From Cyanidioschyzon merolae (Eukaryota): a stretch of DNA of 64,000 bases. The stretch lies in NCBI GenBank assembly GCA_000091205.1, contig AP006501.2, one strand, 5' to 3'. The position numbers were made by a program, and so were the translations under genes. Below the pieces are notes generated by a model that worked only from the letters and a program-made list of their open reading frames with translations, had not been told where the DNA came from and ran no database searches. Positions 5,013 to 22,870 of this stretch are shown here, piece after piece; within the stretch, counting starts at the first letter, position 1, and each line of letters begins with the position of its first letter.

Positions 5013-8000
5013 ATGGACACAGGTTGCCGGTACTCGGGGCGTAACGCTTTCCACCTCAGCAGAAAGGTGGGCCTGCAGCGCCCCCATAACGCGCGCTCGC
5101 TCCATCGGACGCTCCTCGAGTTGGTACGCTCCGTTGCGCATCAGGGACGGCGAGACGTGCCCTGCGAGTCCGAGGCACCCGTCACCGCTATGCGTTCAAG
5201 ATGCAAACTCTCTGAGTCCCCTTGCACTTCAGTGAACCCCCCAAAAAAGCTCAAGGTACCGCAGAAGAGAACTCCGTTCTGCCGTATGGGCACCTGCGCT
5301 CCGAGAGCGCTCAGCCGAAACCCTCCGGTGCACGTCGCACGACGGCTGCTGCAACGCCGGACATCCATCGCACGGCCGCACACAAGCCGTTCGTACTGGA
5401 GCCGTCAAGGAAGCCTTTTGGCGATAATCTGCTCTCTGAGTTTCTGCAAGTGCCTTTATCCTATGGACGCTTTCATTTGCGTGAAGATACACAGTACAGC
5501 TTTGGTGAGGTCACCGGCTTGGAACCTTTCCCGTTTCGATGGCAGACACAGCTGCGTATCCGGTTGGCGACGCAGCCGCGGACGCCGTACTGCGGAAACG
5601 CTTCGACTGTTGCAGGATGAGGACGCGGTGCCTGAACCGCGGACACAGAAGCAGTCGCCCTTCTCGGGGATAGCGACTAGTGAGTCGGTGCAAAATGTAT
5701 CCAAGTATGCGGAGGTTCTGCTCCAAAAGAATAAGGCACTCCAAAAGTGGTCGGAGAAGAGTCTGGAGCGAGAAAACCCCGGGGCAGGGACGACGCTGCT
5801 CGAGGACGTGGCTCACGACGCCACCAACGAGGAAACCTCAGCGCTCAGTGCAGAAGAATCAAAATTTGCCCCCAGGGGGAAACGGGGCCGCCGTCCTCAT
5901 CGGGAACAGAGGCCCGCTGGTTACTGGAACGCCGACAACGTCGTTCGTGAGGTTCTCGAGTTCGTGCGCTCGCGCCCAAACTCCGGAAACGGACCCCAAT
6001 ACATGCCCACTTCGAACGAGCTGCGAGAGGCAAAACGCTCTGATCTCGTTCGAGCCATCATTGTTCACGGGGGCTACGCGAAGGTAGCAGAGCGCTGTGG
6101 CCTCCAGCCGCATCGACGATCGTTTGGGTACTGGCGCAAGGACTTTAAGAACCTCGAACGAGAGATTTGGAGTTTTATAAGAGAACGTGACGGCCCCGAA
6201 GCAGTTCCTCGTGAATTTAGAGGCGATTCCTCAACAAGGTCACGTAGGAAGAGCACCGCCGATGCCAGCGCTTCACAGGCGACCCCAAATGAACCAACGA
6301 CTCGGCCGCGTATGCCTACCTACAATGAGCTCGTAGCAGCAAAGAAGCGGATTCTTGCTTACGCGATTGCGGAAAACGGTGGCTTTCTCGAGGTAGCCAG
6401 AAGAATGAACCTGCAGCTCAGCAGCGATGAGACCCCCTGGCGCGATCGCGATGCACTCGTTGCGGAGCTGCTGCGTCTTTTCCCGGACTTGATGGGAAAA
6501 CAGAAACGCTTTCCGCGGCAACAGGATCTCGTTCGACTTGGTCGTTATGACCTCGACTGGGCCATTCATCGTTGGCATGGCGGTTACACACGACTAGCTG
6601 CCGAGCTTGGATACCTGCGATCTCGGCTACCGTGCAAGCCGCGAAACTTTTGGTCTGATGAACGGAATTTAGAGAATGAGTTGCGAGCGCTGCTGCAAGC
6701 GAACAATATGGGTTGGCGGATGCCGAATCGAAAGGAGCTCGAGGCTCTCGACAGGCACGACCTGATCTACGCCATTCGCAAGTTCGGCGGTTTCCTCACG
6801 GTCGCAACGAAACTGGGGCTATCGCGGGATGCGCTTACTCATACGCGGCCTCGAGGGTACTGGTCGGATTTCGAAAATCTGCGCACTGAATTGCAAGCTT
6901 TTGTTCAAGAAAATGGCTATCCCGGCATTATGCCGCGCCTCGAGCAGCTTCGTATGTACAACCGGGAGGACCTGATCAATGCAATCCATCGCCACGGCGG
7001 AGCAGCGAATGTGGCACGCCGCTTGCATCTCTTCTGGTACGGCCCGAAGACTTTCTGGCGCAAGTTCGAAAACCTCGGACAGCGACTGAGGGCATTTTTG
7101 CACAAGTCGCGCTTTTCCCATGACAAGATGCCTACACAGCAGGAACTCATAAGCGCTGGACGTGTGGATGTGGCGTACGGTGTCCATCTGCACGGCGGTG
7201 TGTATGAGGTGGCACGGCGCCTTCGACTGCAGGTTCTCGATCCTCCGCGAGCGCCGTTCTACTGGAACGATATCCAGAACGTGGAGACGGAACTCATTGC
7301 TTTTGTTAACAGTGCAGTTCACGCCGCATGGATACAGAACGGTGTCATGCCCACGAGCATGACCATCGTTCGAAGTGGGCGGCGTGATCTCGCTGCCGCT
7401 ATCCGACGTCATGGTGGATGGGATGCGTTTGCTCGCCGTTTGAACCTGCGCCCAGCCGCACCCAAGCGCCCGAAAGGCTACTGGAATACCCTGCGCAACG
7501 TGGAAGCAGAGTTGCTGCTCTACGTACAACAACGCGAACAAGTGATTGCAGAGTTCGTGCGAAACTACGCTGCGGACTTTGTACGTCGCCCAGGAGACGA
7601 CGAAGACGACCCTGACGCAGCAGGAAAAATAGCATATTCCGATGTTTCTGAAATCCTCGCTGGGAACGTCGGCAACAAGCGCTGTCGCACTGTCGTGGGT
7701 GCGATACGCAACGGTGCGTACGTACCAGTGATGCCCACCGCTGAGGAACTTCGCCTCGACGGACGTGCAGACCTTGTTTTCGCCTGTGAACGCATTCATG
7801 GCGGGCTTGCTACTGTTGCCCGCGGTCTCGGGTGGCCACTACTCGCGGAGCGACTACCCCCTGAGTCGTTGAAGAAGGATCGCAACGTTCTCGTTCAGGC
7901 GCTGATGACCATGTGGATACCGATTTACGGGACTGCAGGTGAGATGCCCACTGAGGCAGATCTGTTACGAACCGGTGGAATCGACATCCATGAGGCTATT

Positions 8001-8189
8001 GTTTGCCATGGCGGCTACGTAGAGGTTGCACGCTCCTTGAATTTACGCCATCCGGAGGATCCAGAATGGACCGATTGGTCTGCGAAACGCTTCTCAAAGC
8101 AGCGCATGTCGCGGCCTTTGCAACCGCGATCGAAGAAGGGCTCCAAAGCATCTCCAGAAACGAGCGGTGATTCTGCTGATGAGGTCTGA
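5013..8189 (+). CDS. Tandem-repeat protein of 1058 aa: low-complexity R/S-rich N-terminus, then at least 10 copies of a ~60-aa repeat with consensus W-x-[DN]-x-x-N-[LV]...EL...MP[TS]..EL...GR.DL..AI..HGG...VA..LGL; family unknown, probably a helical nucleic-acid-binding repeat
   Basis: ATG at 5013 verified. The repeat recurs visibly: MPTSNELREAKRSDLVRAIIVHGGYAKVAERCGL / MPNRKELEALDRHDLIYAIRKFGGFLTVATKLGL / MPTQQELISAGRVDVAYGVHLHGGVYEVARRLRL / MPTEADLLRTGGIDIHEAIVCHGGYVEVARSLNL, each preceded by (Y/F)W..(E/F)NL..EL. Confidence 0.6.
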   Translation: MDTGCRYSGRNAFHLSRKVGLQRPHNARSLHRTLLELVRSVAHQGRRDVPCESEAPVTAMRSRCKLSESPCTSVNPPKKLKVPQKRTPFCRMGTCAPRALSRNPPVHVARRLLQRRTSIARPHTSRSYWSRQGSLLAIICSLSFCKCLYPMDAFICVKIHSTALVRSPAWNLSRFDGRHSCVSGWRRSRGRRTAETLRLLQDEDAVPEPRTQKQSPFSGIATSESVQNVSKYAEVLLQKNKALQKWSEKSLERENPGAGTTLLEDVAHDATNEETSALSAEESKFAPRGKRGRRPHREQRPAGYWNADNVVREVLEFVRSRPNSGNGPQYMPTSNELREAKRSDLVRAIIVHGGYAKVAERCGLQPHRRSFGYWRKDFKNLEREIWSFIRERDGPEAVPREFRGDSSTRSRRKSTADASASQATPNEPTTRPRMPTYNELVAAKKRILAYAIAENGGFLEVARRMNLQLSSDETPWRDRDALVAELLRLFPDLMGKQKRFPRQQDLVRLGRYDLDWAIHRWHGGYTRLAAELGYLRSRLPCKPRNFWSDERNLENELRALLQANNMGWRMPNRKELEALDRHDLIYAIRKFGGFLTVATKLGLSRDALTHTRPRGYWSDFENLRTELQAFVQENGYPGIMPRLEQLRMYNREDLINAIHRHGGAANVARRLHLFWYGPKTFWRKFENLGQRLRAFLHKSRFSHDKMPTQQELISAGRVDVAYGVHLHGGVYEVARRLRLQVLDPPRAPFYWNDIQNVETELIAFVNSAVHAAWIQNGVMPTSMTIVRSGRRDLAAAIRRHGGWDAFARRLNLRPAAPKRPKGYWNTLRNVEAELLLYVQQREQVIAEFVRNYAADFVRRPGDDEDDPDAAGKIAYSDVSEILAGNVGNKRCRTVVGAIRNGAYVPVMPTAEELRLDGRADLVFACERIHGGLATVARGLGWPLLAERLPPESLKKDRNVLVQALMTMWIPIYGTAGEMPTEADLLRTGGIDIHEAIVCHGGYVEVARSLNLRHPEDPEWTDWSAKRFSKQRMSRPLQPRSKKGSKASPETSGDSADEV

Positions 8190-9886: not shown

Positions 9887-10593
9887 TAGAGTGCACCCCG
9901 AATGGAACCATCTGAACGCGCTCCACCTTGTTCTAATTTGGGTGCAGCACACGGGCTCACCACCTGTTCGAGACAAACGTTGCGAATGATCTGCAAGTGC
10001 GGCGCCCTACCAGTGCCTCTACGCATGGAGATTTCCATAGATATTCGAGCAGTTCTTGTAGGGCGCTCTAGCGCCATTACATGGAAAACATTCTGTGCTG
10101 CACACTCGAATCGGTGCCCTGGTTGAAACCAGTCATTCAGGATGCTGGAGCAACAACCATCTCAGCGGACATGGACCGAGCATCCCCGGTTCTAAAAGAA
10201 GCAGTGTTGCAGATCGGTGATACGGCAGGCCTCTCTAGAGAGTACCCAGACAGGCATGTATGAATCTGGGGTATTTTCGAATGCTTTCAGGACGATCATG
10301 ATGATGCGTTGCTTGCTCGGAAGCATCTGCAGCGTACCTGTTTGTGTACCAGCGCACGCGGGTGTGCGCCCTGTGCACCTGCGCAGCGACGTACGTGATT
10401 GTCTACCCAGGCCTCCTTGTCTGTTGTATCGTCACCGACTACTAGACGAGTTGCTGCACATGCGCAGCAGGAGAGAGGTCTCGTCGATGTAACAAGCTGG
10501 TGTGTTGAGCCCTGGTGAGCTGTTCACTGCGTTCTGTCTGGTTTCGTCGGGACTCTTGAACGCCCGGTTCGTCGTTGCTGAGTTTAACCAGCG

Positions 10594-11535
10594 ATGACGT
10601 TGCTGCACTTTAGAGGAAGGCGTCAAGCCGAGACCAGCCGCGCAAGCACCGAGATAAACTCTGAAAACCGCTCGCACTCTTCAACTGGTGGTGCTTTGAA
10701 TCCAAGCGAGGCGAACACAGAGCACGACGAGGTGATGGCGGAGCTTCACGACCTTCTGGTTCGTGAGCTGACCGATTGCGGTCTCATTGACTTGTTTACG
10801 TCGCAAAGCTTGCCTCAGTATGCATCAGAAAAGGATACCCTGACCGATGCAGGGTCAGAGAAGCAGCACAAAGCGACCGAGCTGGGAAACGGCGCCTCGG
10901 GCGGCGTGTTTCAACACTGGACCGGACCCTCGCGGCCTGCACCAGCTGACTTGTTAACCGTAGAGTCGCCACACGGTCGCACGGAGGAGCCAAGCGGTAA
11001 CCGCGGGTCCTTTCAGCGGGACGTACCGCCACTCGAGGACCAAAATGAGCCCATTTCCAGGGCTATGCAGCGCATCCGAGCTGCACTGCGACGCTGGAAA
11101 CCGCTCCACGGCGAGGTCGACCTCGAGACCCTCGAGCGCCTCAAGAACTCGATCGTTGAGCGCTCTGCCTGGTTTTTACGCGAGCAGGCAGAACAACGAG
11201 CCCGCTGGAAGGCAATGCGTCAAAACCCTGCCTATGTCGTTGAAGACTTTACAGCGAACCAGCGAACCTTCTTCTCATGGATTCGGACCAGTTTCCGTAT
11301 GGTCCTTACGGGAGCAGCCATTGGAAAGCTCTTGCACGGAACCAGCGTCATTATTCTCGGGGTACTGTATGCTGCCCTTGGCCTAATCTGCATTGCAGCG
11401 GGCACGATGCATTTTTACCATTGGCAGCGAACATTGTACAATCATCGATATTTGCGGGATTCGCGTCCTTTCATCGTGGTGTTCCTGGGAATCACTGCGA
11501 CCAGTGTCGTCGCTCTAATGGCTTGTTGGAAATAG
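10594..11535 (+). CDS. DUF202-domain membrane protein
   Basis: ATG at 10594 verified. The C-terminus carries the DUF202 signature NQRTFFSWIRTSF followed by hydrophobic helices (MVLTGAAIGKLLHGTSVIILGVLYAALGLICIAAG). Confidence 0.45.
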   Translation: MTLLHFRGRRQAETSRASTEINSENRSHSSTGGALNPSEANTEHDEVMAELHDLLVRELTDCGLIDLFTSQSLPQYASEKDTLTDAGSEKQHKATELGNGASGGVFQHWTGPSRPAPADLLTVESPHGRTEEPSGNRGSFQRDVPPLEDQNEPISRAMQRIRAALRRWKPLHGEVDLETLERLKNSIVERSAWFLREQAEQRARWKAMRQNPAYVVEDFTANQRTFFSWIRTSFRMVLTGAAIGKLLHGTSVIILGVLYAALGLICIAAGTMHFYHWQRTLYNHRYLRDSRPFIVVFLGITATSVVALMACWK

Positions 11536-12042
11536 GTGCCAGCCCGGAGTAAGCGCCGCTGACCGTGACCCGACGCTGCACCACTGAGCGAGCGCATTCT
11601 CTTGTGCACATGCGAATGCGTCGCTATATCCGTATCGTATCGACCTGTATAATACTATCCATGACATTGCAGGCGCACCGCTGCAGCATTGGGCATCTGC
11701 TGACACCCGACTAGGCCAGGTGCGGTGTTGTCTTCAAGTGAATCTGGGTTACCACGGCGGATAAACATGCGAACCTCGACGACATTCCGGATCTGACTTG
11801 TTCCCCTCGCCCGCTCTGTCTACGGATGACGTCAACTCGACCAATGTGCAGCGCTTCTCCGCTCACAACCAGCGATGCTTCAGGCAAAGTCCTTCACCGT
11901 TATGCTCGATGCTGTGCGCATGCGGTTATTGGAAAAGGCGACCCCGATGCTGATACTCTGTTTCGTACATATCTCAGTGCATTGCGCTCTGGTCTGAATC
12001 AACGTCACTGGATATGTTCGTCGGCTTTGCCCAGAGAAACTG

Positions 12043-13326
12043 CTATGAAGCCGTTGGGCTCGACACGGGATCTTCGCTGGCGATGTCCTCGGCCTCGTCC
12101 TCGGAGTCTATTTCATCCGTCGCTGGCCAGATGCTCGGAGGCATATGCTTCATCTGGACAGAGGGAGCACCTTCTAGTTGGCGCAATTGTTCGATAACTT
12201 TGCTCTTCACCTTCTCTAGATAATCTCTCGAATTCTGGTTCTCCAGTTCACGCATTGGTTGAATATGGAGAGAATATTCTGGAGCGAAGTATTCCCAGTA
12301 ATCATTGTATGGAATCTGGGCGTCTACCGATATGCCTAGAAGCACCGAGGTCTCAAAGAGCCAGCAGCGGGCAACGTTTCGGATGTTGTAGCCACCACCG
12401 CCGAGGACCAGCATCGGGATTCGGAACGAACGAACAAAAGCCACCGCATTCGCATGTCCCTGTACCGTCAAGTTAAAGCACCCGAGTCGATCATGGGCCA
12501 GAGAATCCGCGCCACACTGCATCACGATTGCACCCGGTTGATATACTTCGATGACCTTGGTTATTATCGGCTCGAAAATGCGACTGAAACCTGCATCATC
12601 CATGCCGTCTTTCAGGGGCACGTTCACCGCGTATCCTTCACCGCGCCCGTAGCCGCGGTCCCATACATCTCCGGTTCCCGGGAAAAAGTTGTCTCCGTAT
12701 TTGTGGAAGGACACCGTGAGCACTCGATCTGTGGTGTAGAAGGCTTCTTCGACACCATCACCATGATGCACATCAATATCGATGTAGAGCACACGCGGGT
12801 AGAGACGCAGCAGTTCGAGAATTGCCAGTACGATATCGTTCACATAGCAGAAACCGCTCGCTTCACTTTTCTTGGCATGATGAAGACCACCTGCCCAGTT
12901 AATCGCAATATCACTGGTACCCGACATGAGTTTTCTGGCACCGTCGATACTACCGCCGGCAGATACGGCGCAAAAGTCCCAAAGACCGTCAAACAGCGGA
13001 CAGTCGCCGTGTTGTCGTCCGACGTTAAACCGCTGTAGCTGGTCCAAAACGTCGTCGGTTATGGTGTCCGGGGTTGTGTTTCGCAGGAACTCTATATAGT
13101 CGTGGGCGTGGAACTTTTCGCACTCCTCAGGGCTCGCTTTACGAGGCTTGTAGACGTCCATATGGCGATAGAGACCGTACGCGAGACATAGGTTGTGCGT
13201 GATGGCCATTCGGTGCGGTTTCATGGGATGATGCTGTCCATAATAGTAGCCCCCAACATCAAAGTCCATAAAATAGGCCACGCGCAAACGGTCGGTGGAA
13301 CCATACAGAGCCTGGCTCGACAGCAT
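12043..13326 (-). CDS. Class I histone deacetylase (RPD3/HDAC1-like), 427 aa, intronless
   Basis: ATG (plus-strand 'cat' at 13324-13326) verified. Classic HDAC catalytic motifs are present: [44 protein letters not shown], and an acidic C-tail. Confidence 0.9.
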
Positions 13327-13459
13327 GAGTCCAGTGAAGATCGAGACGTTCGCTAGAGCACCGAAAACAAGCGAGGAACCTGAAGCGTCCGGGTGGCTTT
13401 GTATGCACGGATGCTCGAAGCCTAGCTAGCGCACAACTTGGCTGAGGATGCGCACCCCT

Positions 13460-16005
13460 GGAAACAAACGTCTTTCAAAAGAAAAACGTTGCTGCCAGTG
13501 GTACAGTAGTGGCGGCAACCGCACCCTAGCCAAGAAGTCTCCAACTGATGTGCAGACGCCTTCCAGCTTTTTTCGACTGGCCACCCACTACTGCTTCCAA
13601 CTTTTTCCCATATAATTCCACATTCAGAGATGGTTCCATAAAGTTTTCTCTTGTCAGCTCTGGGGGTCTATTCTCCATCAACGCATATTTCCTTATATTG
13701 CTGGCAGCATTAAAGTCTCGGTTCATAAACTCCATACGTTTCGTGCCGTTGGGAGTTGTACTCACTAATGCAAGTAGTCCACGAACTTTCGCGCTCCTTT
13801 CCATTTGCTCTTCCGTCAGCGTACCGTACTTTCTTATAACCTCAGGACTCCGCTGGCACTTTTCCATCTCGACCCTCTGAAGTGTACACCCTAGCTCATG
13901 GTGTGTATAGGACGTTCGAAACTCATCTACAGGTATCGTGACGATACTCCGTGCACACTCTTTGTACGTTCTTGTCGTTGGAGCTGGCGTAGTTCCTTGC
14001 TTGGGTCTTCCGTCACCCTGCTCCGTACGCTACTACGAGTCTCTGACTTTCATCCTCCTTCAAGGCGCTCAGCAGATTGAAAAAGTTCGCGAATGCACGC
14101 TGCTTCCCACAATACAAATTCATTCGCAGTCGAACCCACCGGGGCTTGGTCTACTCTTTCCACAGCGCATACCAGTGAGCAATACGAAGTTCCATGAATT
14201 TCCGAAGAGCCTGAATGTCCGCTCGTCGGCTCGTCACCTCGCTCATAGCTTCCAGATGCTCTTTCATTCTTTCATTCCATGCAGCAATTTTCTTCCTCGC
14301 ATTCATTATACCGGATTCTCGATAGTATCTCGCTCTCGAGAACCTCAAAAGACGCATGTATTTCTGACGTAAGTTACCATCAGTACCATCTTCCGCACGC
14401 TGGGGTACTGCGATGGTTATGTTATTTGTGTTTCCGGGATCCGCGCTGACGACAAAGTCGTTATCTTGCACCTCCTGCGTCGCAGGATCCGCCTCCTTCT
14501 CATCTTCATGCATCGTCGCGCCTGCATCCTTCGTCTCGGGCGCAGCCGAGGGAGGGACTGGACGATCTGTCTTCAACCGCCGATAGTGTATACACAAGGC
14601 TACTCCATCGGTTTCGATCATCTCAGTGAATACCTTTTGTTTGCTGACTTTGAGACGTTTGAAATCGAAGATATTCTTCCAGTATGTCTGCCGGTTTTCA
14701 CCGGAGAATTCCTTCCTGCTAACATCGAAATCAGGACTGATCTCGCTCGTGATGCTGCAAAGACGCCAGAGTCGATAGTCACAAAATGTGACTTGATATT
14801 GTACATTGGAACCACGTTGAAGCGCTTCCCCATTAGGAACGCCTTCCGTCTCTCCCACTCTTCATTTTTTCCTCATTCAGCCTCATCTCTGCCGTGCGTT
14901 CGAGTTCGCGGTCCAAAAACACGAAATACCTCAAGATGAGGAGGTAGTATCTTTCCTTATCTTTTCCAACTCTGATATCTTGTCTGCTGGATTAACCAGC
15001 CCCAGTACCGCACGGTGCTCTTGTATAACCGCACGGATTACAGAAGCTTCATTCGTGCACTAATTCGACGCCTTCTTGTCAACGAACTCGATCTCATCTT
15101 CATGATGGCGATCGTTCGTGATGCAATTGATAATCGCCCATTTTCCTTCGCGAGACAGACCCGGGTGGAGTGCAACCACGGCGCGTATCATGAAACGTTC
15201 GAAGTTCGCTGTCAAATGGTTCTTCAGATTCGTGAGGTACTTCATGGCCCCGTAGCTGTAAATATCCCAGTCACCCTTGTACCGAGTACCCTCGAAGCTG
15301 TAGAAGGAATGTTTTTCGTGGAGGGCATGCACTAGCACATTTTCCCTCCGCGCTTTCTCTGTACCAAGCATCAGGTGAGGAATAAAGGTCTTGTCGAAGA
15401 ACTCGCCCGGAATCTCGACCTTTTCCATGTGCGTCCCGTCGCGATACATCTCTCTCACCAAATGCATCAGTCCTGACGACGCCTTGACAATATTCTTCGA
15501 GTACGACGCAACACGTTTTTCGATAGCTTCTCGCAACTTTTCCCTGTACGGATCCTTGATCTGTCCAAGAAGAAAGGTTTTCACCACCATCTCGTCGCAC
15601 AGTTGTCTTTCTTGCCGCTTTCGACGTAGGGCCTCCCCCGTTTTTGCGTTTTCTTCTTATCCTGCTCTTCTGGAATCGGCACTGTTTTTTGTTTTTTTTC
15701 TGGCACCCGGCGACACTGGGCCTCCAGGATCGTAGACTTGCTTTTTCATAGCTTTCCTTTTTTAGTTTTTTTTGAGAAAGAACGCTCTTTGAACTCTTCT
15801 GTTATATACTGCGAAAAAAACACTTGATTAGACTTGTTCGAAGTTTGAAACACAATTGAAATGAAAAACTGTACTTGGCTATGAAGTTAACGAAAATACA
15901 ACTTTTACATTAGATCTACATGCTAGAGATCAGGATCACGTTCCCCTTCAACAACGGCATGTGCGTAGCGTCTCATGCCTGCCTGATCTCCGAGGTGCAC
16001 TCACC
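13460..16005. repeat. Left arm of the large inverted repeat (about 2.55 kb); partner at 20268-22870
   Basis: The reverse complement of the left arm aligns with the right arm. The ORF trios 15060-15590 / 14151-14858 / 13526-13867 (-) and 20696-21226 / 21428-22192 / 22476-22658 (+) are near-identical. The inner boundary matches at 'atcgcgctcggtgagtgcacctcggagatcaggcaggcatgaga'. The outer ends are diverged but still alignable to about 13460 and 22870. Confidence 0.85.
13526..15590 (-). CDS. TnpB/Fanzor-like RuvC nuclease (OMEGA-type RNA-guided endonuclease candidate), left copy, in three ORF blocks: 15590-15060 (helical N-terminal part), 14858-14151 (RuvC-I region), 13867-13526 (RuvC-III region). 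The gaps are introns or shared frameshifts.
   Basis: ATG at 15590 verified ([19 protein letters not shown]...). Block 2 carries the RuvC-I-like ...[19 protein letters not shown], with the Asp codon at 14439-14441. Block 3 carries the diagnostic RuvC-III ...[19 protein letters not shown], with the Asp codon at 13715-13717 (D-x-NAA-x-NI as in TnpB, Fanzor and Cas12). Block 2 starts at GTG, so it is not an independent gene. The frame upstream of block 3 stays open ([22 protein letters not shown]...), suggesting a +1 frameshift or intron junction near 14013-14029. Confidence 0.6.
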
Positions 16006-16599
16006 GAGCGCGATGCAAACTAGTCACAAATTATTTATTAAAGAACAACTATCTTAAAAGCCCCATACAGCACGCGCGCCTATGGGGTCTAGTTTTTCCG
16101 AAGAAGCTCTGAAAGTGGGTTAAACCGGGGTGCTTGGGCGACGACGAAGGAAGCCCACGCCAGGGACCATGACCGCAACGAACGGAGGGGCGGAGGCAGT
16201 GGCAGCAGAAAATATTGACGAGAGTTCTGAGTAGTTATCCGCTGCTCCCGAAACAACGCTGCAGGTTCCGGCGCAAATCCTGGATCCATCCTCGAACTCG
16301 GGCTACGTTTTACCTCCCACCTTGAGCACCTACCTCAACTTTGGAAACACTCTCGGCGGATACTTCGGAAGGCGGCTATCGATATGCTCGTGGTCGAAGC
16401 TGGAATAAGCGACTTACCCGCCTATGTGTTTGGGGAACGGATACGTAACCGCTGAACGGGTGCTTTGCAGACTGTTCCCAATGGTTGAGGGTAGCTTCAC
16501 GCGTCCGGCAAGATAAAGTTCGCATTCGAATCGACCTTGACTAATGTACTTCTGATTCTACGCTAGCGCTGCGGCAGACACTCAATGAACGACTGGAAT

Positions 16600-19500
16600 G
16601 CAGGAGGCGCTGGTGGCATGTGCTCTCACACACCTTGTGGAGGGTGCATCTAAATGGACGACGCATCTCTCGAGTACCGCAGCGTTACTCCTATACCCTT
16701 ATGCGCTACGACTCGATAGGTTTCGCATCATGGAATATTTGCGGTGTGGCCTCGATACTAGACGACGAGATATCGAATTACCAGTACAGTAATGAAGAAC
16801 TGATACAAGTCGAGGACTGTACAATAGGAAAAGAGACCCAACCAGACACGGAGAAGGAGACACAGAAACCTCATGATCCACCTAGATGCAAAATAACCAG
16901 AGAAAGTAGCTCAGGAAAGAGCCCGAAGAAGAAAAAGACCAGCAAGAAATAAACAGAAGAATAGAAAAAAGAACTCCCAAATGAGCCCATCACAAGGTAT
17001 CCCCCGAGAGGGCACCCCAGCTGGAACTCAAGAAAGCCGTCGCCAAACCCAGGCACCTACTCACAGCGCTGAAGATCCGAAAAGCCGTGCATACAAATTT
17101 TTTGACCAATTGACACGCGAGTTTGTAGATGGGAATCAGAAGATTGCCAGAGAGCTGGGACTGCTTGCACCAGAACGCAACAGTTGCAAACCTCGGTACC
17201 TGAAACGACGTACCAAAACTCGGATTGATGAATGCTACCGAGTCTATAAGATCGTCAACCGCACCGCCATACACGCCAACGCCGGAGACAAAGAAGCGAA
17301 GGCAGCGCTACCGGCGCTACAGGCGCAACATGAAGAAGCTATCAAAAGAAAGAAGAAACTTTCCAGAGAAGACAAACGAGAGGATCGAAACCGCAGAATC
17401 GCCTCCCTGGCGAAATCTATGCTGGAGAGCACCAACGAAGATGAGATCTGGCGCTACATTCGATCGAGACTCGACCCACCAAAAAAGTGCTTGGGGCTCA
17501 CACCAACTCTGTATAAGGAAGAGCTGAGGACGGAGCGTGCCTCAGTGAATGAGGCCTGGACAGACCACTGGACAGAGCTGCATGAAGAAGCAACTGGACA
17601 CTGCTAAGACCCAATCTATTGGCACCAATATGCTGCAGAACTACCGCGCCTCGACCCGGTACCGGAATGGAACGACCCAATCTTCTGGCCTGAATCTGTC
17701 CGGACTCTGCTATGCTCAAGCAACCGCAAAACACCTGGCTTTGACGGTATCCCTACGGAGTGGATGAAACTGGTGATCCCAAAAGACGGGACAACAGGGA
17801 CACCATCGATACCAGATGAACCTGACAGAATCTTAGGCAAGCGCCTTCTGGAGCTCATCCAACGCATGTTCGAAGAAGCGTACATCCCAGATGTATGGAG
17901 GACTGCCGAGGTCGTATCGATCCTCAAAAAGGACTCCGAACCCCACAGACATGAATATCTACCGGACTATGCGCCTCATCCCGTCAATCATGAAGCTACT
18001 TTGCGCCAACCTCACGAACCGGACTCAGAGGGGCCTTGAGGAACGCAACTTCCTCGCCCCAGAGCAGGCTGGATTCCGGAGCCGCGAGGAGTGCATGAGC
18101 CATGACCTGACCTTCATTGAAGTGGTGCAACGTCGCTCCATTAGCTGCCAACAACCAACTTACGTATGCTTCATCGACTTTCAAAAGGCCTTTGACACGG
18201 TCCCGCACGAGGCTCCATTTCTGAAGATGGAACGTGCCAGAGTCTCCGGAAAGTGCTTAGCGTTCTTCCGTGCGCTCTATGCAGACTCGTGGATGTGCAC
18301 CCGACTGGGCGACTGCTCAAGAACCCCTTCGATAAGAATCCGCCGTGGACTGCGACAGGGCGACCGCGCATCCCCGCGCCTTTTCAACATCTTCATCAAC
18401 GATCTGCTGAACAACTGCAGACAATACGGGCTTCAGGTGTCGTGGATAGACTGTGGAGAACCCGGTGAGGAGCGCCTACATAGAAACCGCCTCGCAGGCC
18501 TTCTACTTGCGGACGATGTCGTGCTGTTGGCACCCGCCCCGGAAACGCTTGCGGCTAGCATGCAACAAGTCAGCGCCTGGGCCGATCGCTGGGTTATGAA
18601 CATAGGAGCATCGAAGTGCGGCGCCATGGTCATCCTTGGAGACTCGCAGCGCATTCGCAATCGCTCGTGGCGGTTGCAGAATCAGGAAATTCCGATCGTG
18701 GAAAAATATCGCTACCTGGGGGTCTGTCTCACGCCGACGCTCGACGAAAAGGCACAAGTCGACGAGATGATCGCCAAGATGCATAGACGTACAGAGATCG
18801 CACGTCCATTCTTATCCGACCCCTCTATCTGCATAGCAATCCGTACGAGGGCACTAAGGATGTGTATCATCCAGCCTTCGACCTGGGGTGCTGAATGGTG
18901 CGGCATGAAGCACACAAATGCCTCGCGTCTGCATACAGCCGCCAACAGGGCAATGCGACTCGTTGGTGTTGGATGCTCAGTGCAGCGCAGAGCGACCAAC
19001 CCGCTGGCACTCGGACTTGAACTCCAAATAGCCTCGATAGAAGCGATAGCAGCAGGCTGCCGGGCATGTATACGGGCCAAAGGGCCCACTATGCGCACCT
19101 CCTTGAGTCGGATTTTCATGCAGACCCCAACGCACCGCTAGAACACTTGGATGAAATCAGCGCAGATTTGGCTGAAGCGCCTCTTACGCGAAAACACGCT
19201 ACCCAATCGTTCCCCAGGAATGTAGAAGACTTCAGACGCCTCAAGCGAACGGTCCAAACAACAATATGGGAAGGTAGACACGGTACCAGTCGCGCTAGTA
19301 ACGCCGGCTTGACTCTATATCGGAACTACAACCTAGCATACACATGCAAGTACTGGTGGGAGGCGCTGGAATTCCCGGGACTTGCTCGCGGTACCCTGTG
19401 GCTTGCCAAAATCCGTGTTAGTGGCATCTGGCTACCAGCACCGGCTCTAAGCCGTACGGGAACACTGGAACCGCACTGGGAGTCACACTGTCCCTGCTAT

Positions 19501-19700
19501 CGAGACGAAATCCCCGAGACGCTGACATATTTAAGCTTACAGTGCCCGCGCTCGAAGCAGGAGCGCAGCGAGCTCCTTGAAGGACAGCAGGAGCTCGGCA
19601 TCACCGTGATAGTCGAAGGCCGGACACTCACTCTGAGTGTAGCACTGGCAACTGATGGTCCGCTAACGGAGCCTCAGCGCTCATGAGTGGCGAAGAAACT
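16600..19700 (+). mobile_element. Degenerate non-LTR (LINE-like) retrotransposon remnant at the centre of the palindrome
   Basis: RT motifs are split across frames. IPDVWRTAEVVSILKKDSEP (in ORF 17764-18039) is followed, after a frameshift, by YRTMRLIPSIMKLL...FIDFQKAFDTVPHE...RGLRQGDRASPRLFNIFINDL...LLADDVVLLA (in ORF 17891-19141). The C-terminal ORF 19066-19686 carries a Cys/His motif, HCPCYRDEIPETLTYLSLQCP. The upstream ORF 16981-17607 is K/R/E-rich. No APE endonuclease domain or poly(A) tail is seen. Confidence 0.7.
17764..19141 (+). pseudogene. Reverse transcriptase (non-LTR type), frameshifted
   Basis: RT domains 0-7 are recognisable but distributed over two overlapping frames, with the frameshift near 17900-18040. 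Confidence 0.7.
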
Positions 19701-20267
19701 CACATGCTACCTTCTAGGCAGCAGGTCCAACGAATCGGATGAGCACACGGGTTTAGTGCTCTTTGTGCCTACCCACTGTGGTGGGTGTCAAGCACAAACC
19801 CGCATTGCCAACCGACAACACATTCAATGCATGATCACGAAGGAAAGAGGCGGCTCGCACGATATATCCTAACAGCCAAGTTTCTCCAGCGTGTCGTGCA
19901 GCGAAGACAAGCCTGCATCCGCAGACTGTCCGAGCACAAACTGACGACGAGACCCGATTCTACTTCGGTTGAACCACGCCTCGAGCCGACGCGCTCTGGG
20001 GTATAGAAAAGCTGCTCTAGCTCGATGAACTATCTGCTCCAGCATTTAAGGTCCAAAGGCGGATACGGAAAGGCAGGTACTAGGCACACACGATAGGACG
20101 TATGAAACGACCAGAGTATCCGAGGTGAAGTATAGGTACTGTAGCTTGGAGGCAGGCTGTTTGATGGATACCTAACCGCGCACTGAAAAAAATAACATAA
20201 AAAAGTAAGAAAAGAAAAAGCGCACAATTGGAAAATGCTGGCACAAGTAAACGTCTTGTCCATGAAA

Positions 20268-22870
20268 AAAAGAATCGCGCTCGGTGAGTGCACCTCGGAG
20301 ATCAGGCAGGCATGAGACAAGACGCGCGTGCCGTTTTTGAAGGGAAACGCGATCCTGATCAGTAGCGTGTTGTTCTGCTGTAAAAGTCGGATTCCCGTTC
20401 AGATCATAGCAAAGTATAGTTTTCATTTCAATTGTGTTTCAAACTTCGAACAAGTCTAATCAAGTGTTTTTTTCGCAGTATATAACAGAAGAGTTCAAAG
20501 AGCGTTCTTTCTCAAAAAAACTAAAAAAGGAAAGCTATGAAAAAGCAAGTCTACGATCCTGGAGGCCCAGTGTCGCCGACTGCCAGAAAAAAAACAAAAA
20601 ACAGTGCCGATTCCAGAAGAGCAGGATAAGAAGAAAACGCAAAAACGGGGGAGGCCCTACGTCGAAAGCGGCAAGAAAGACAACTGTGCGACGAGATGGT
20701 GGTGAAAACCTTTCTTCTTGGACAGATCAAGGATCCGTACAGGGAAAAGTTGCGAGAAGCTATCGAAAAACGTGTTGCGTCGTACTCGAAGAATATTGTC
20801 AAGGCGTCGTCAGGACTGATGCATTTGGTGAGAGAGATGTATCGCGACGGGACGCACATGGAAAAGGTCGAGATTCCGGGCGAGTTCTTCGACAAGACCT
20901 TTATTCCTCACCTGATGCTTGGTACAGAGAAAGCGCGGAGGGAAAATGTGCTAGTGCATGCCCTCCACGAAAAACATTCCTTCTACAGCTTCGAGGGTAC
21001 TCGGTACAAGGGTGACTGGGATATTTACAGCTATGGGGCGATGAAGTACCTCGCGAACCTGAAGAACCATTTGACAGCGAACTTCGAACGTTTCATGATA
21101 CGCACCGTGGTTGCACTCTACCCGGGTCTGTCTCGCGAAGGAAAATGGGCGATTATCAATTGCATCACGAACGATCGCCATCATGAAGATGAGATCGAGT
21201 TCGTTGACAAGAAGGCGTCGAATTAGTGCACGAATGAAGCTTCTGTAATCCGTGCGGTTATACAAGAGCACCGTGCGGTACTGGGGCTGGTTAATCCAGC
21301 AGACAAGATATCAGAGTTGGAAAAGATAAGGAAAGATACTACCTCCTCATCTTGAGGTATTTCGTGTTTTTGGACCGCGAACTCGAACGCACGGCAGAGA
21401 TGAGGCTGAATGAGGAAAAAATGAAGAGTGGGAGAGACGGAAGGCGTTCCTAATGGGGAAGCGCTTCAACGTGGTTCCAATGTACAATATCAAGTCACAT
21501 TTTGTGACTATCGACTCTGGCGTCTTTGCAGCATCACGAGCGAGATCAGTCCTGATTTCGATGTTAGCAGGAAGGAATTCTCCGGTGAAAACCGGCAGAC
21601 ATACTGGAAGAATATCTTCGATTTCAAACGTCTCAAAGTCAGCAAACAAAAGGTATTCACTGAGATGATCGAAACCGATGGAGTAGCCTTGTGTATACAC
21701 TATCGGCGGTTGAAGACAGATCGTCCAGTCCCTCCCTCGGCTGCGCCCGAGACGAAGGATGCAGATGAGCAGAAGGCGGATCCTGAGACGCAGGAGGTGC
21801 AAGATAACGACCTTGTCGTTGGCGCGACGATGCATGAAGATGAGAAGGAGGCGGATCCTGCGACGCAGGAGGTGCAAGATAACGACTTTGTCGTCAGCGC
21901 GGATCCCGGAAACACAAATAACATAACCATCGCAGTACCCCAGCGTGCGGAAGATGGTACTGATGGTAACTTACGTCAGAAATACATGCGTCTTTTGAGG
22001 TTCTCGAGAGCGAGATACTATCGAGAATCCGGTATAATGAATGCGAGGAAGAAAATTGCTGCATGGAATGAAAGAATGAAAGAGCATCTGGAAGCTATGA
22101 GCGAGGTGACGAGCCGACGAGCGGACATTCAGGCTCTTCGGAAATTCATGGAACTTCGTATTGCTCACTGGTATGCGCTGTGGAAAGAGTAGACCAAGCC
22201 CCGGTGGGTTCGACTGCGAATGAATTTGTATTGTGGGAAGCAGCGTGCATTCGCGAACTTTTTCAATCTGCTGAGCGCCTTGAAGGAGGATGAAAGTCAG
22301 AGACTCGTAGTAGCGTACGGAGCAGGGTGACGGAAGACCCAAGCAAGGAACTACGCCAGCTCCAACGACAAGAACGTACAAAGAGTGTGCACGGAGTATC
22401 GTCACGATACCTGTAGATGAGTTTCGAACGTCCTATACACACCATGAGCTAGGGTGTACACTTCAGAGGGTCGAGATGGAAAAGTGCCAGCGGAGTCCTG
22501 AGGTTATAAGAAAGTACGGTACGCTGACGGAAGAGCAAATGGAAAGGAGCGCGAAAGTTCGTGGACTACTTGCATTAGTGAGTACAACTCCCAACGGCAC
22601 GAAACGTATGGAGTTTATGAACCGAGATTTTAATGCCCCTATCAATATAAGGAAATGAGCGGTGCTGGAGGAAAGACCCCCAGAGTAGACAATAGAAAAC
22701 CTTTTTGGACAACCTCTCAAAGTCGAACTATATGAGATAAAGTTGGAACCAGTATTAGGTGGCCGATCCAAAAAGGCTGGAAGGCGTCTGCACATCAGCT
22801 GGAGGCGTTTCGTCTAGGGCGCGTTCGCCGGCACGACTGTACACGGCCGCCGGCTGTGCGTCACGTGGAG
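20268..22870. repeat. Right arm of the large inverted repeat
   Basis: See the left arm. Relative to the left arm, the right arm carries a 57-bp in-frame tandem duplication at about 21761-21900 and indels after the RuvC-III motif. Confidence 0.85.
20696..22658 (+). CDS. TnpB/Fanzor-like RuvC nuclease, right copy, in blocks 20696-21226, 21428-22192 and 22476-22658; the C-terminus is frameshifted relative to the left copy
   Basis: ATG at 20696 verified. Block 1 differs from the left copy at 3 of 176 residues. RuvC-I Asp codon is at 21902-21904 (SADPGNTNN). RuvC-III Asp codon is at 22626-22628 ([11 protein letters not shown]). The ORF stops right after the motif, whereas the left copy continues about 50 aa; the equivalent residues ([12 protein letters not shown]) appear in another frame at about 22770-22810. 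Confidence 0.55.

Follow-up and report, generated by a model that had tools for sequence, protein, structure and literature searches.

A nine-unit repeat protein of Cyanidioschyzon merolae as a far-diverged member of the PF18780 (HNH_repeat) superfamily

Introduction

A stretch of 64,000 nucleotides (nt) of nuclear DNA from Cyanidioschyzon merolae (GenBank assembly GCA_000091205.1, contig AP006501.2; this whole stretch is hereafter called the window) contains, at positions 5013..8189 of the plus strand, an open reading frame (ORF) of 1058 amino acids (aa) plus a stop codon. The first-pass annotation, which was made from the sequence alone, placed this ORF correctly and described its product as a large protein composed of repeats that could not be assigned to any family. 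The question raised by the locus is therefore what this repeat is, where it comes from, and what an array of such repeats might do in a red alga. We find that the protein carries nine units that are distant relatives of the Pfam family PF18780 (HNH_repeat), and that a nucleic-acid-binding function is the best, although conditional, reading of the available evidence.

Databases already list the gene and its orthologues as hypothetical proteins, and the repeat is a distant member of a named Pfam family, so that the protein is not new in a categorical sense. The novelty lies in a large and mostly uncurated divergent branch of PF18780, the structure of its unit, its bacterial enzyme partners, and the conserved stand-alone nine-unit form found in red algae.

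The repeat is genuine and distantly related to PF18780

The periodic motif reported in the first-pass annotation was confirmed. A hidden Markov model (HMM) built from the units of the unrelated bacterial protein P0004 alone scored the window protein at 428 bits, whereas 500 shuffles of the repeat region reached 7.1 bits at most. When the whole window was scanned in six frames, exactly nine units were located, all within the 5013..8189 ORF, and not the “at least 10” copies first proposed. The units measure 65–73 aa rather than ~60 aa, with units 2 and 8 being longer through insertions. Tandem Repeats Finder detected no DNA-level tandem repeat, and the other units are only 24–43% identical to unit 1; the array is therefore an old protein-level repeat and not repetitive DNA. 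The linker (K/R)-P-x-G-Y-W between units ranks with the best-conserved segments of the repeat family, its five specified positions being conserved at 95%, 90%, 73%, 74% and 87%.

Searches of Pfam, NCBIfam and the PDB sequences with the full protein and with a 25-unit profile returned nothing above threshold. PF18780 gave no match to the full-length protein at E ≤ 1 and reached 13.8 bits (E = 0.074; gathering score 26) when units 4–7 were used. A sample of this family was collected with a bait sequence, which retrieved 158 real proteins. All 120 that were listed bear a precomputed PF18780 annotation, and several of these are named “homing endonuclease associated repeat-containing protein”. Our own HMM of real PF18780 units scored the window protein at 6.6 bits. 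Yet when an alignment of 217 non-redundant repeat units was compared with one of 81 non-redundant real PF18780 units using hhalign, the two profiles matched with a probability of 96.3% (E = 1.7e-9, score 41.8) over 52 of ~59 columns. Reversed and column-shuffled controls (30 of the latter) scored no higher than 13.7, with probabilities of 3.7% or less.

Several proteins bridge the two groups. P0041, P0097, P0096, P0112, P0108 and P0129 score 54–120 bits on the Pfam PF18780 model; five of these (P0041, P0096, P0097, P0108 and P0112) also score 263–407 bits on a local HMM of the repeat alignment, and the sixth, P0129, obtained 245 bits in an exhaustive search with the repeat profile. A further protein, P0062, has a PF18780 match of 29.9 bits inside its own repeat zone. 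Because homology is evident from profile–profile comparison and from the bridging proteins, yet the window protein itself falls far below threshold, the red-algal unit is a far-diverged branch of the PF18780 superfamily. The family is thus no longer nameless, as it was in the first-pass annotation. That annotation had named a confident match to a known repeat family as refuting evidence; such a match is obtained here indirectly, and the protein itself stays below the Pfam threshold.

The two groups share tandem arrangement and the same order of motifs, comprising an ELxxF/L amphipathic helix, a G-x-P-T motif, a short helix, an aromatic/His-G-(G/S) turn, a further helix and a terminal (A/L)GL. 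They differ in the length of the unit, which is ~54–56 aa in PF18780 and 65–73 aa in the red-algal protein, and in the motifs themselves: where PF18780 has FGSW and a G-x-Y/F-S segment, the red-algal units have HGG and GRxDL, respectively, and they possess the conserved (K/R)PxGYW linker in addition. PF18780 occurs in proteins with LAGLIDADG or LexA DNA-binding domains and in others named HNH endonuclease. The red-algal protein, in contrast, is eukaryotic and stand-alone, has nine position-specific units, and lacks an endonuclease domain; no nuclease or other catalytic domain was found in it by the Pfam, NCBIfam and PDB-sequence searches.

Predicted structure of the unit

A full-length AlphaFold2 (AF2) model, calculated from an alignment of 22 orthologues and relatives, has a mean predicted local distance difference test score (pLDDT) of 75 and a predicted template modelling score (pTM) of 0.51, with pLDDT values of 80–95 within the units. 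A model of units 5 and 6, based on 45 aligned two-unit segments, reached a pLDDT of 92.4 and a pTM of 0.67. In both models, pLDDT falls at the inter-unit linkers. The same four helices are predicted in every unit, in agreement with the large helical repeat protein that was originally proposed. Helix A comprises ~15 residues (xNVxxELxxF), helix B six residues following M-P-T, helix C nine residues starting from GRxDLxxAI, and helix D eight residues following HGG (xxVAxxLGL). A one-residue bridge connects the segment preceding MP with the segment following LGL.

A Foldseek search of the PDB with the whole model returned no significant hits (best E about 1), with TPR/ARM-like proteins appearing as noise, and a structure search of BFVD yielded uncharacterised phage proteins only, at E ≥ 0.017. 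The nearest solved folds are the C-terminal conserved domain (CCD) of Slx4 and a helical segment of SauUSI, which superpose with the unit with root mean square deviations of 2.5–2.9. All are small helical domains of ~55–60 residues, and we also count as shared that the two solved domains come from nuclease complexes. The unit is thus predicted to be a small four-helix domain without a close solved relative.

The first-pass annotation had pointed to a helix-turn-helix (HTH)-like core, HGGxxxVAxxLGL, and this resemblance is borne out at a low level. Nearly all weak matches are to HTH families and fall on the HGG–helix D–LGL segment; they include YdaS/Cro-like, HTH_50, LysR HTH and ARID. The matches are below threshold for the window protein, with 22.8 bits for YdaS_toxin (cut-off 30) and 13.3 bits for HTH_50 (cut-off 27). 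Summed over the units of relatives they exceed it, with 31.5 bits for HTH_1 on P0004 and 95 bits for P22_Cro on P0041. In the two-unit AF2 model, helix D and its turn are followed by the linker at the place where a recognition helix would lie.

Other candidate families were set aside. Weak matches to Lcl_C, ESCRT-II, Ish1 and ARID were taken as noise or generic helical similarity. PF26683, which is precomputed on P0004 and was considered as a dedicated family, is Tyr_recomb_halo_N; the match is faint and was rejected.

Distribution of the family and its partner domains

A word-indexed search with the unit profile returned just 11 short fragments and missed the long members, and the profile was therefore searched exhaustively against 1.84 billion cluster representatives (clusters at 50% identity). 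This search returned 3,444 proteins at E ≤ 1e-3, 1,838 at E ≤ 1e-10 and 626 at E ≤ 1e-30. Many family members consist of repeats only, with 4–13 units. By this count the family comprises more than 3,400 clusters, which curated models do not cover at this divergence.

Orthologues of the window protein, all annotated as “hypothetical”, are found in Cyanidiococcus (63–65% identity) and, more distantly, in Cyanidium, Galdieria, Porphyridium and Pyropia. Units 5–9 of C. merolae best match the units at the same positions in the nine-unit orthologues of Cyanidium, Galdieria and Pyropia, and in the eight-unit proteins of the Porphyridium type the match is shifted by one position. Each unit position keeps its own conserved residues across orthologues, and unit-specific motifs such as HLxWxGPSSFWRxFxNLRxRL and RDHGGWxYYAQRLGLRF recur in further assemblies. 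This conservation of position-specific units implies that the array is older than the split of these red-algal lineages and that its units are not interchangeable.

Bacterial relatives carry the repeat at full strength (220–1100 bits on the repeat profile) and, unlike the red-algal protein, bear ATPase, nuclease or methyltransferase domains. In P0017, P0020, P0062 and P0068, the array is fused to a SNF2/ResIII ATPase, Helicase_C and Methyltransf_8. In P0103 and P0116, it forms the C-terminal part of a protein with a Mrr nuclease, ResIII and Helicase_C, and the cores of these two proteins match PADLOC models of type IV methyl-directed restriction enzymes with E-values of 1e-68 and 1e-48. Both kinds of protein are uncharacterised; their helicase cores resemble those of DrmD, ZorD, DpdE and type IV restriction enzymes.

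A search for loci related to that of P0004 identified one Chloroflexia metagenome-assembled genome. In the P0004 contig (L005, 805-6895), the array gene is followed by an overlapping called gene for a SNF2 ATPase with an Rrp8-like Methyltransf_8 domain, and in the Chloroflexia genome (L001, 6001-12004) the DNA directly 3′ of the P0004 homologue resembles the SNF2–methyltransferase gene with 53–84% identity. Array, SNF2 ATPase and Methyltransf_8 constitute a conserved bacterial module, present in two Chloroflexi-type contigs and fused elsewhere.

A cyanobacterial relative is encoded on plasmid pMIC7113.04 of Allocoleopsis franciscana PCC 7113 (WP_015211581.1; L002, 4137-5633) and has three C-terminal repeat units. 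Ahead of them stands a second kind of repeat, HTH-like and ~50 aa long (C..LY..G.S..EI...TGI...TIR.W..KAGI), in about four copies. The protein is annotated as “ATPase subunit of terminase (gpP-like)”, a name that looks wrong, and its gene directly follows one for a serine recombinase.

A possible connection to the green lineage is provided by P0005, which looks green-algal by eye and carries at least four repeat units. Immediately ahead of the repeats, a brief stretch matches the end of the RimM PRC barrel below threshold (PF24986, E = 1.2e-4), and a comparison with the RimM structure in the PDB (7cq1_A) gave E = 0.56. P0005 may correspond to maize EMB15 and Arabidopsis At5g46420, which belong to the RimM-like plastid ribosome maturation factors of plants and green algae. 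RimM-like proteins are plastid 16S rRNA maturation factors located in the stroma and the nucleoid (bioRxiv 10.1101/2022.03.07.483362; PMC4046486; PMC4138088; PMC11987935). The RimM and PRC domains of EMB15 and At5g46420 have no counterpart in the window protein, in which Pfam detected neither a RimM N-terminal domain nor a PRC barrel. A BLASTP comparison of red-algal units 8–9 with the RimM-fused units aligned in several registers, leaving orthology ambiguous.

P0005 (residues 437–492) and the fragments P0007, P0009 and P0012, which by eye look like members of the green lineage, have a WW domain within one repeat unit, located after helix A and ahead of the MPT motif. The insertion site in these RimM-linked homologues is the position at which red-algal units 2 and 8 are also interrupted.

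Translation start and terminal regions

The ORF as first read, 1058 aa plus stop at 5013..8189 (+), has a database counterpart in an old MetaClust entry, the sole member of that length in the cluster at 90% identity. A length of 908 aa, as expected for initiation at Met151 (nt 5463), is shared by the current annotation and by 11 of the 13 proteins in this cluster, and the remaining one has 625 aa. The alignment with the Cyanidiococcus orthologue likewise begins at Met151, and a comparison of ORF residues 1–150 with the DNA upstream of that orthologue showed no in-frame similarity. Finally, the match between the window and L004, a near-identical metagenome contig, does not begin until 45 nt before the ATG at nt 5463. 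On account of these four observations, Met151 is probably the initiator, and the first 150 codons, an R/S/P-rich in-frame extension at 5013..5462 (+), probably represent untranslated 5′ leader.

The probable coding sequence therefore extends over 5463..8189 (+) and encodes 908 aa plus a stop codon. Over 908 aa, its product shows 100% identity to the cluster that holds BAM82708.1, XP_005538744.1 and UniProt M1VLR5; BAM82708.1 and M1VLR5 bear the name “hypothetical protein, conserved” [C. merolae 10D]. The 230-aa R/S/P-rich low-complexity N-terminus of the first-pass annotation is thereby retained in part. Its first 150 residues probably do not belong to the protein, while ORF residues 151–299 are the true N-terminal region of 149 aa, which AF2 models as mostly disordered with one helix.

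Over the 2727 nt of the gene, L004 and the window differ at five positions (two synonymous and three non-synonymous), which is too few to gauge purifying selection. When L004 1-120 is compared with window 5250-5420, divergence is complete 45 nt before the ATG, and a ubiquitin-coding fragment is located there in L004. The break could stem either from a chimeric assembly or from a structural variant.

The 908-aa protein starts with MDAFICV and has Phe at position 4; its first ~60 residues are basic and S/R-rich, with few acidic residues. Residues 1–73 (5463..5681, +) form a disordered, basic region that resembles a presequence, as judged from AF2 and from the sequence, and pLDDT lies below 50 at residues 1–79 and 106–143. 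By inspection, Phe occurs within the first seven residues in eight of 17 orthologue models. An N-terminal Phe followed by a disordered presequence is reportedly typical of red-algal plastid transit peptides, and inspection of its sequence suggests that the N-terminus is a putative plastid targeting presequence. The single long helix of this region, residues 74–104 (SESVQNVSKYAEVLLQKNKALQKWSE...; 5682..5774, +; pLDDT 70–82), is conserved only among Cyanidioschyzon and Cyanidiococcus, being aligned in P0002 and P0003 only. At the opposite end of the protein, a C-terminal tail (8061..8186, +) follows the last unit and consists of a helix (AF2, residues 867–882) and a disordered, basic K/R/S-rich end (883–908).

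Proposed function and alternative explanations

The reading that we favour, with a probability of about one in two, is that of a non-catalytic, basic and probably organelle-targeted nucleic-acid-binding array; it is a composite, and retains the nucleic-acid-binding array of the first-pass annotation as the best functional interpretation. Several considerations suggest it. In DNA translocases, restriction-like nucleases and homing endonucleases, its relatives form the part without catalytic activity; the unit has sequence features of Cro/LysR-like HTH domains; and conserved basic residues are present on the linker and helix surfaces. The protein as a whole is basic, with a pI of 9.8. The fixed order of the units, of which units 5–9 correspond one-to-one in orthologues, favours a specific target over generic coating. 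The organelle is suggested by the presequence-like N-terminus, the relative on a cyanobacterial plasmid and the weak RimM end of P0005.

Such an array would bind an extended, asymmetric target, either DNA or structured RNA, with one short stretch contacted by each unit. Most of the binding would be contributed by the basic units 1–7, while the conserved residues specific to each unit could provide specificity. From the presequence-like N-terminus, the most likely site of action would be the plastid, where the protein may bind nucleoid DNA or take part in rRNA and ribosome biogenesis. By analogy with the SNF2, Mrr, LAGLIDADG and HNH partners, the target would be DNA.

Several points weigh against this proposal. 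RimM and the Rrp8-like methyltransferase would, in the same manner, point to RNA (rRNA) instead of the DNA indicated by the other partners. The RimM link is itself weak, as the Pfam match is below threshold and the PDB comparison is poorer still. The HTH resemblance is limited in the AF2 model to helix D and the next turn, with no recognition helix predicted to follow. PF18780 was without a known structure as of 2021 (PMC8078820), and a literature search with the family, its name and the accessions of the window protein found no functional study and no paper citing those accessions; since the family has neither a solved structure nor a tested function, little mechanism can be transferred by homology. 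Plastid targeting is proposed by inspection only. Moreover, the basic patches that resemble nuclear localisation signals (KRGRR and, at the C-terminus, KKGSK) would equally fit a nuclear protein.

This last point leads to the alternative that fares best, although we still regard it as unlikely, namely that the protein is not organellar but a nuclear chromatin- or DNA-binding protein, a domesticated DNA-binding array that stems from the endonuclease of a mobile element. A basic protein with the clusters PRGKRGRRPHREQR and, at the C-terminus, KQRMSRPLQPRSKKGSK would be at home in the nucleus, and descent from a repeat that accompanies homing endonucleases and restriction-like enzymes would be in keeping with such an origin; organelle targeting, moreover, was judged by inspection. 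The N-terminal 70 residues are, however, presequence-like and disordered, several orthologues share the N-terminal Phe, and the green-algal-looking P0005 has its weak match to the end of a plastid-type RimM domain, all of which favour an organelle.

Somewhat less probable again is a protein–protein scaffold in which each four-helix unit docks a nuclease, a helicase or a ribosomal protein, in the way that the Slx4 CCD docks the Slx1 endonuclease. The family name and the partner domains are constantly tied to nucleases and helicases, and units 8 and 9 are acidic. Yet the bacterial fusions already link the array covalently to an enzyme, an arrangement that a targeting module fits better than a docking site, and units 1–7 are basic.

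Membership of the PPR/OPR/mTERF class of alpha-solenoid RNA binders, the kind of protein suggested in the first-pass annotation, is refuted as far as the data allow and is now very improbable. The protein is helical, repetitive and possibly organellar, and its unit-specific conserved residues might, in principle, amount to a recognition code. PPR, OPR, mTERF and HPR proteins may share a common logic with it: helical units in tandem, targeting to an organelle, and units that differ by position and could read an extended target. However, no match to PPR, TPR, mTERF or a related Pfam family was obtained for the window protein at E ≤ 1, and neither Pfam nor Foldseek revealed a relationship in sequence or fold to a solved solenoid. 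The unit has four helices in 65–73 aa and is twice as long as the 30–40-aa helical hairpin of PPR/TPR-type solenoids (mTERF units have three short helices), and its homology leads to PF18780. The possibility that repetitive DNA has produced a spurious ORF with no real gene behind it, a notion that only its unusual length, its periodicity and its seemingly non-coding first 150 codons could prompt, can be dismissed given the lack of a DNA tandem repeat, the divergence of the units, their high-confidence AF2 fold, and orthologues with equal unit order across red-algal classes.

If the favoured nucleic-acid-binding array is correct, a broader scenario can be sketched, which we put forward as a speculative one. 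The protein would represent an unrecognised class of organellar nucleic-acid-binding repeat proteins derived from a bacterial DNA-binding repeat associated with homing endonucleases and restriction. Red algae would possess a stand-alone form with nine units, and the green lineage a form fused to the plastid 30S assembly factor RimM, with unit residues reading defined plastid DNA or rRNA. Unit-wise specific binding, if true, would constitute a new modular recognition scaffold, and the family would offer another example of a DNA-binding module derived from mobile elements or defence systems and recruited for organelle gene expression.

At present, the protein has a well-supported family assignment and an inferred function. 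The more than 3,400 clusters, which are partly captured by curated models and include bacteria, red algae and the green-algal-looking RimM-like homologue, amount to a gap in curation. A definition of the family would annotate many “hypothetical” proteins, among them the whole red-algal orthologue group, and might extend to the unexplained C-terminal portion of the RimM/EMB15-type factors that assemble plastid ribosomes in plants. As C. merolae is genetically tractable, localisation and knock-out are feasible.

Layout of the nine units

The units follow one another on the plus strand and were delineated with the P0004-unit HMM, supplemented by the sources named below. Unit 1 (ORF residues 300–370; 5910..6122) was also located by the six-frame scan. 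Unit 2 (residues 371–473; 6123..6431; HMM and AF2) is split by a low-complexity insertion of ~30 aa, which separates helix A from the MPT motif at about nt 6213-6302, and AF2 predicts disorder within this unit at residues 255–278 of the 908-aa protein. Unit 3 (residues 474–541; 6432..6635) has a degenerate start, TPW in place of GYW, and contains RWHGG. It is followed by unit 4 (residues 542–611; 6636..6845) and by unit 5 (residues 612–676; 6846..7040), which is further defined by AF2 and orthologues and ends in an orthologue-specific HLFWYGP junction.

Unit 6 (residues 677–745; 7041..7247) is defined by the same three sources, and unit 7 (residues 746–818; 7248..7466), defined by the HMM and orthologues, features an orthologue-specific HGGW motif. 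Unit 8 (residues 819–946; 7467..7850; HMM and AF2) is split by a ~63-aa insertion at nt 7536-7724, which also lies between helix A and MPT; part of it extends helix A, and part is disordered and acidic. In the AF2 model of the 908-aa protein, the corresponding helix spans residues 677–702 and the disordered stretch residues 719–738. Unit 9 (residues 947–1016; 7851..8060) lacks the GYW start and is acidic. The net charge is +2 to +6 for units 1–7 and −3 for units 8–9.

An antisense ORF of 326 aa (6819-7799, minus strand) lies wholly within the repeat-coding region. It gave no match of its own in the searches that were run, and codon usage on the sense strand has most likely produced it mechanically.

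Genomic surroundings

The neighbours of the repeat gene in the window are ordinary eukaryotic genes, encoding a histone deacetylase, an eIF4G-like protein, an aconitase-family protein and an AP mu subunit, together with a reverse-transcriptase retroelement. Synteny extends downstream of the repeat gene, where the DUF202 and histone deacetylase genes at window 10588-13425 correspond to positions 6166-8648 of L003; the order and orientation of these two genes are identical in Cyanidiococcus yangmingshanensis.

An ORF of 434 aa at 17837-19138 (+) contains a reverse-transcriptase domain (RVT_1, E = 3e-22). The surrounding region, 14000-22000, has a lower GC content (0.47–0.51) and a strongly skewed AT/GC composition, and probably represents a retroelement insertion.

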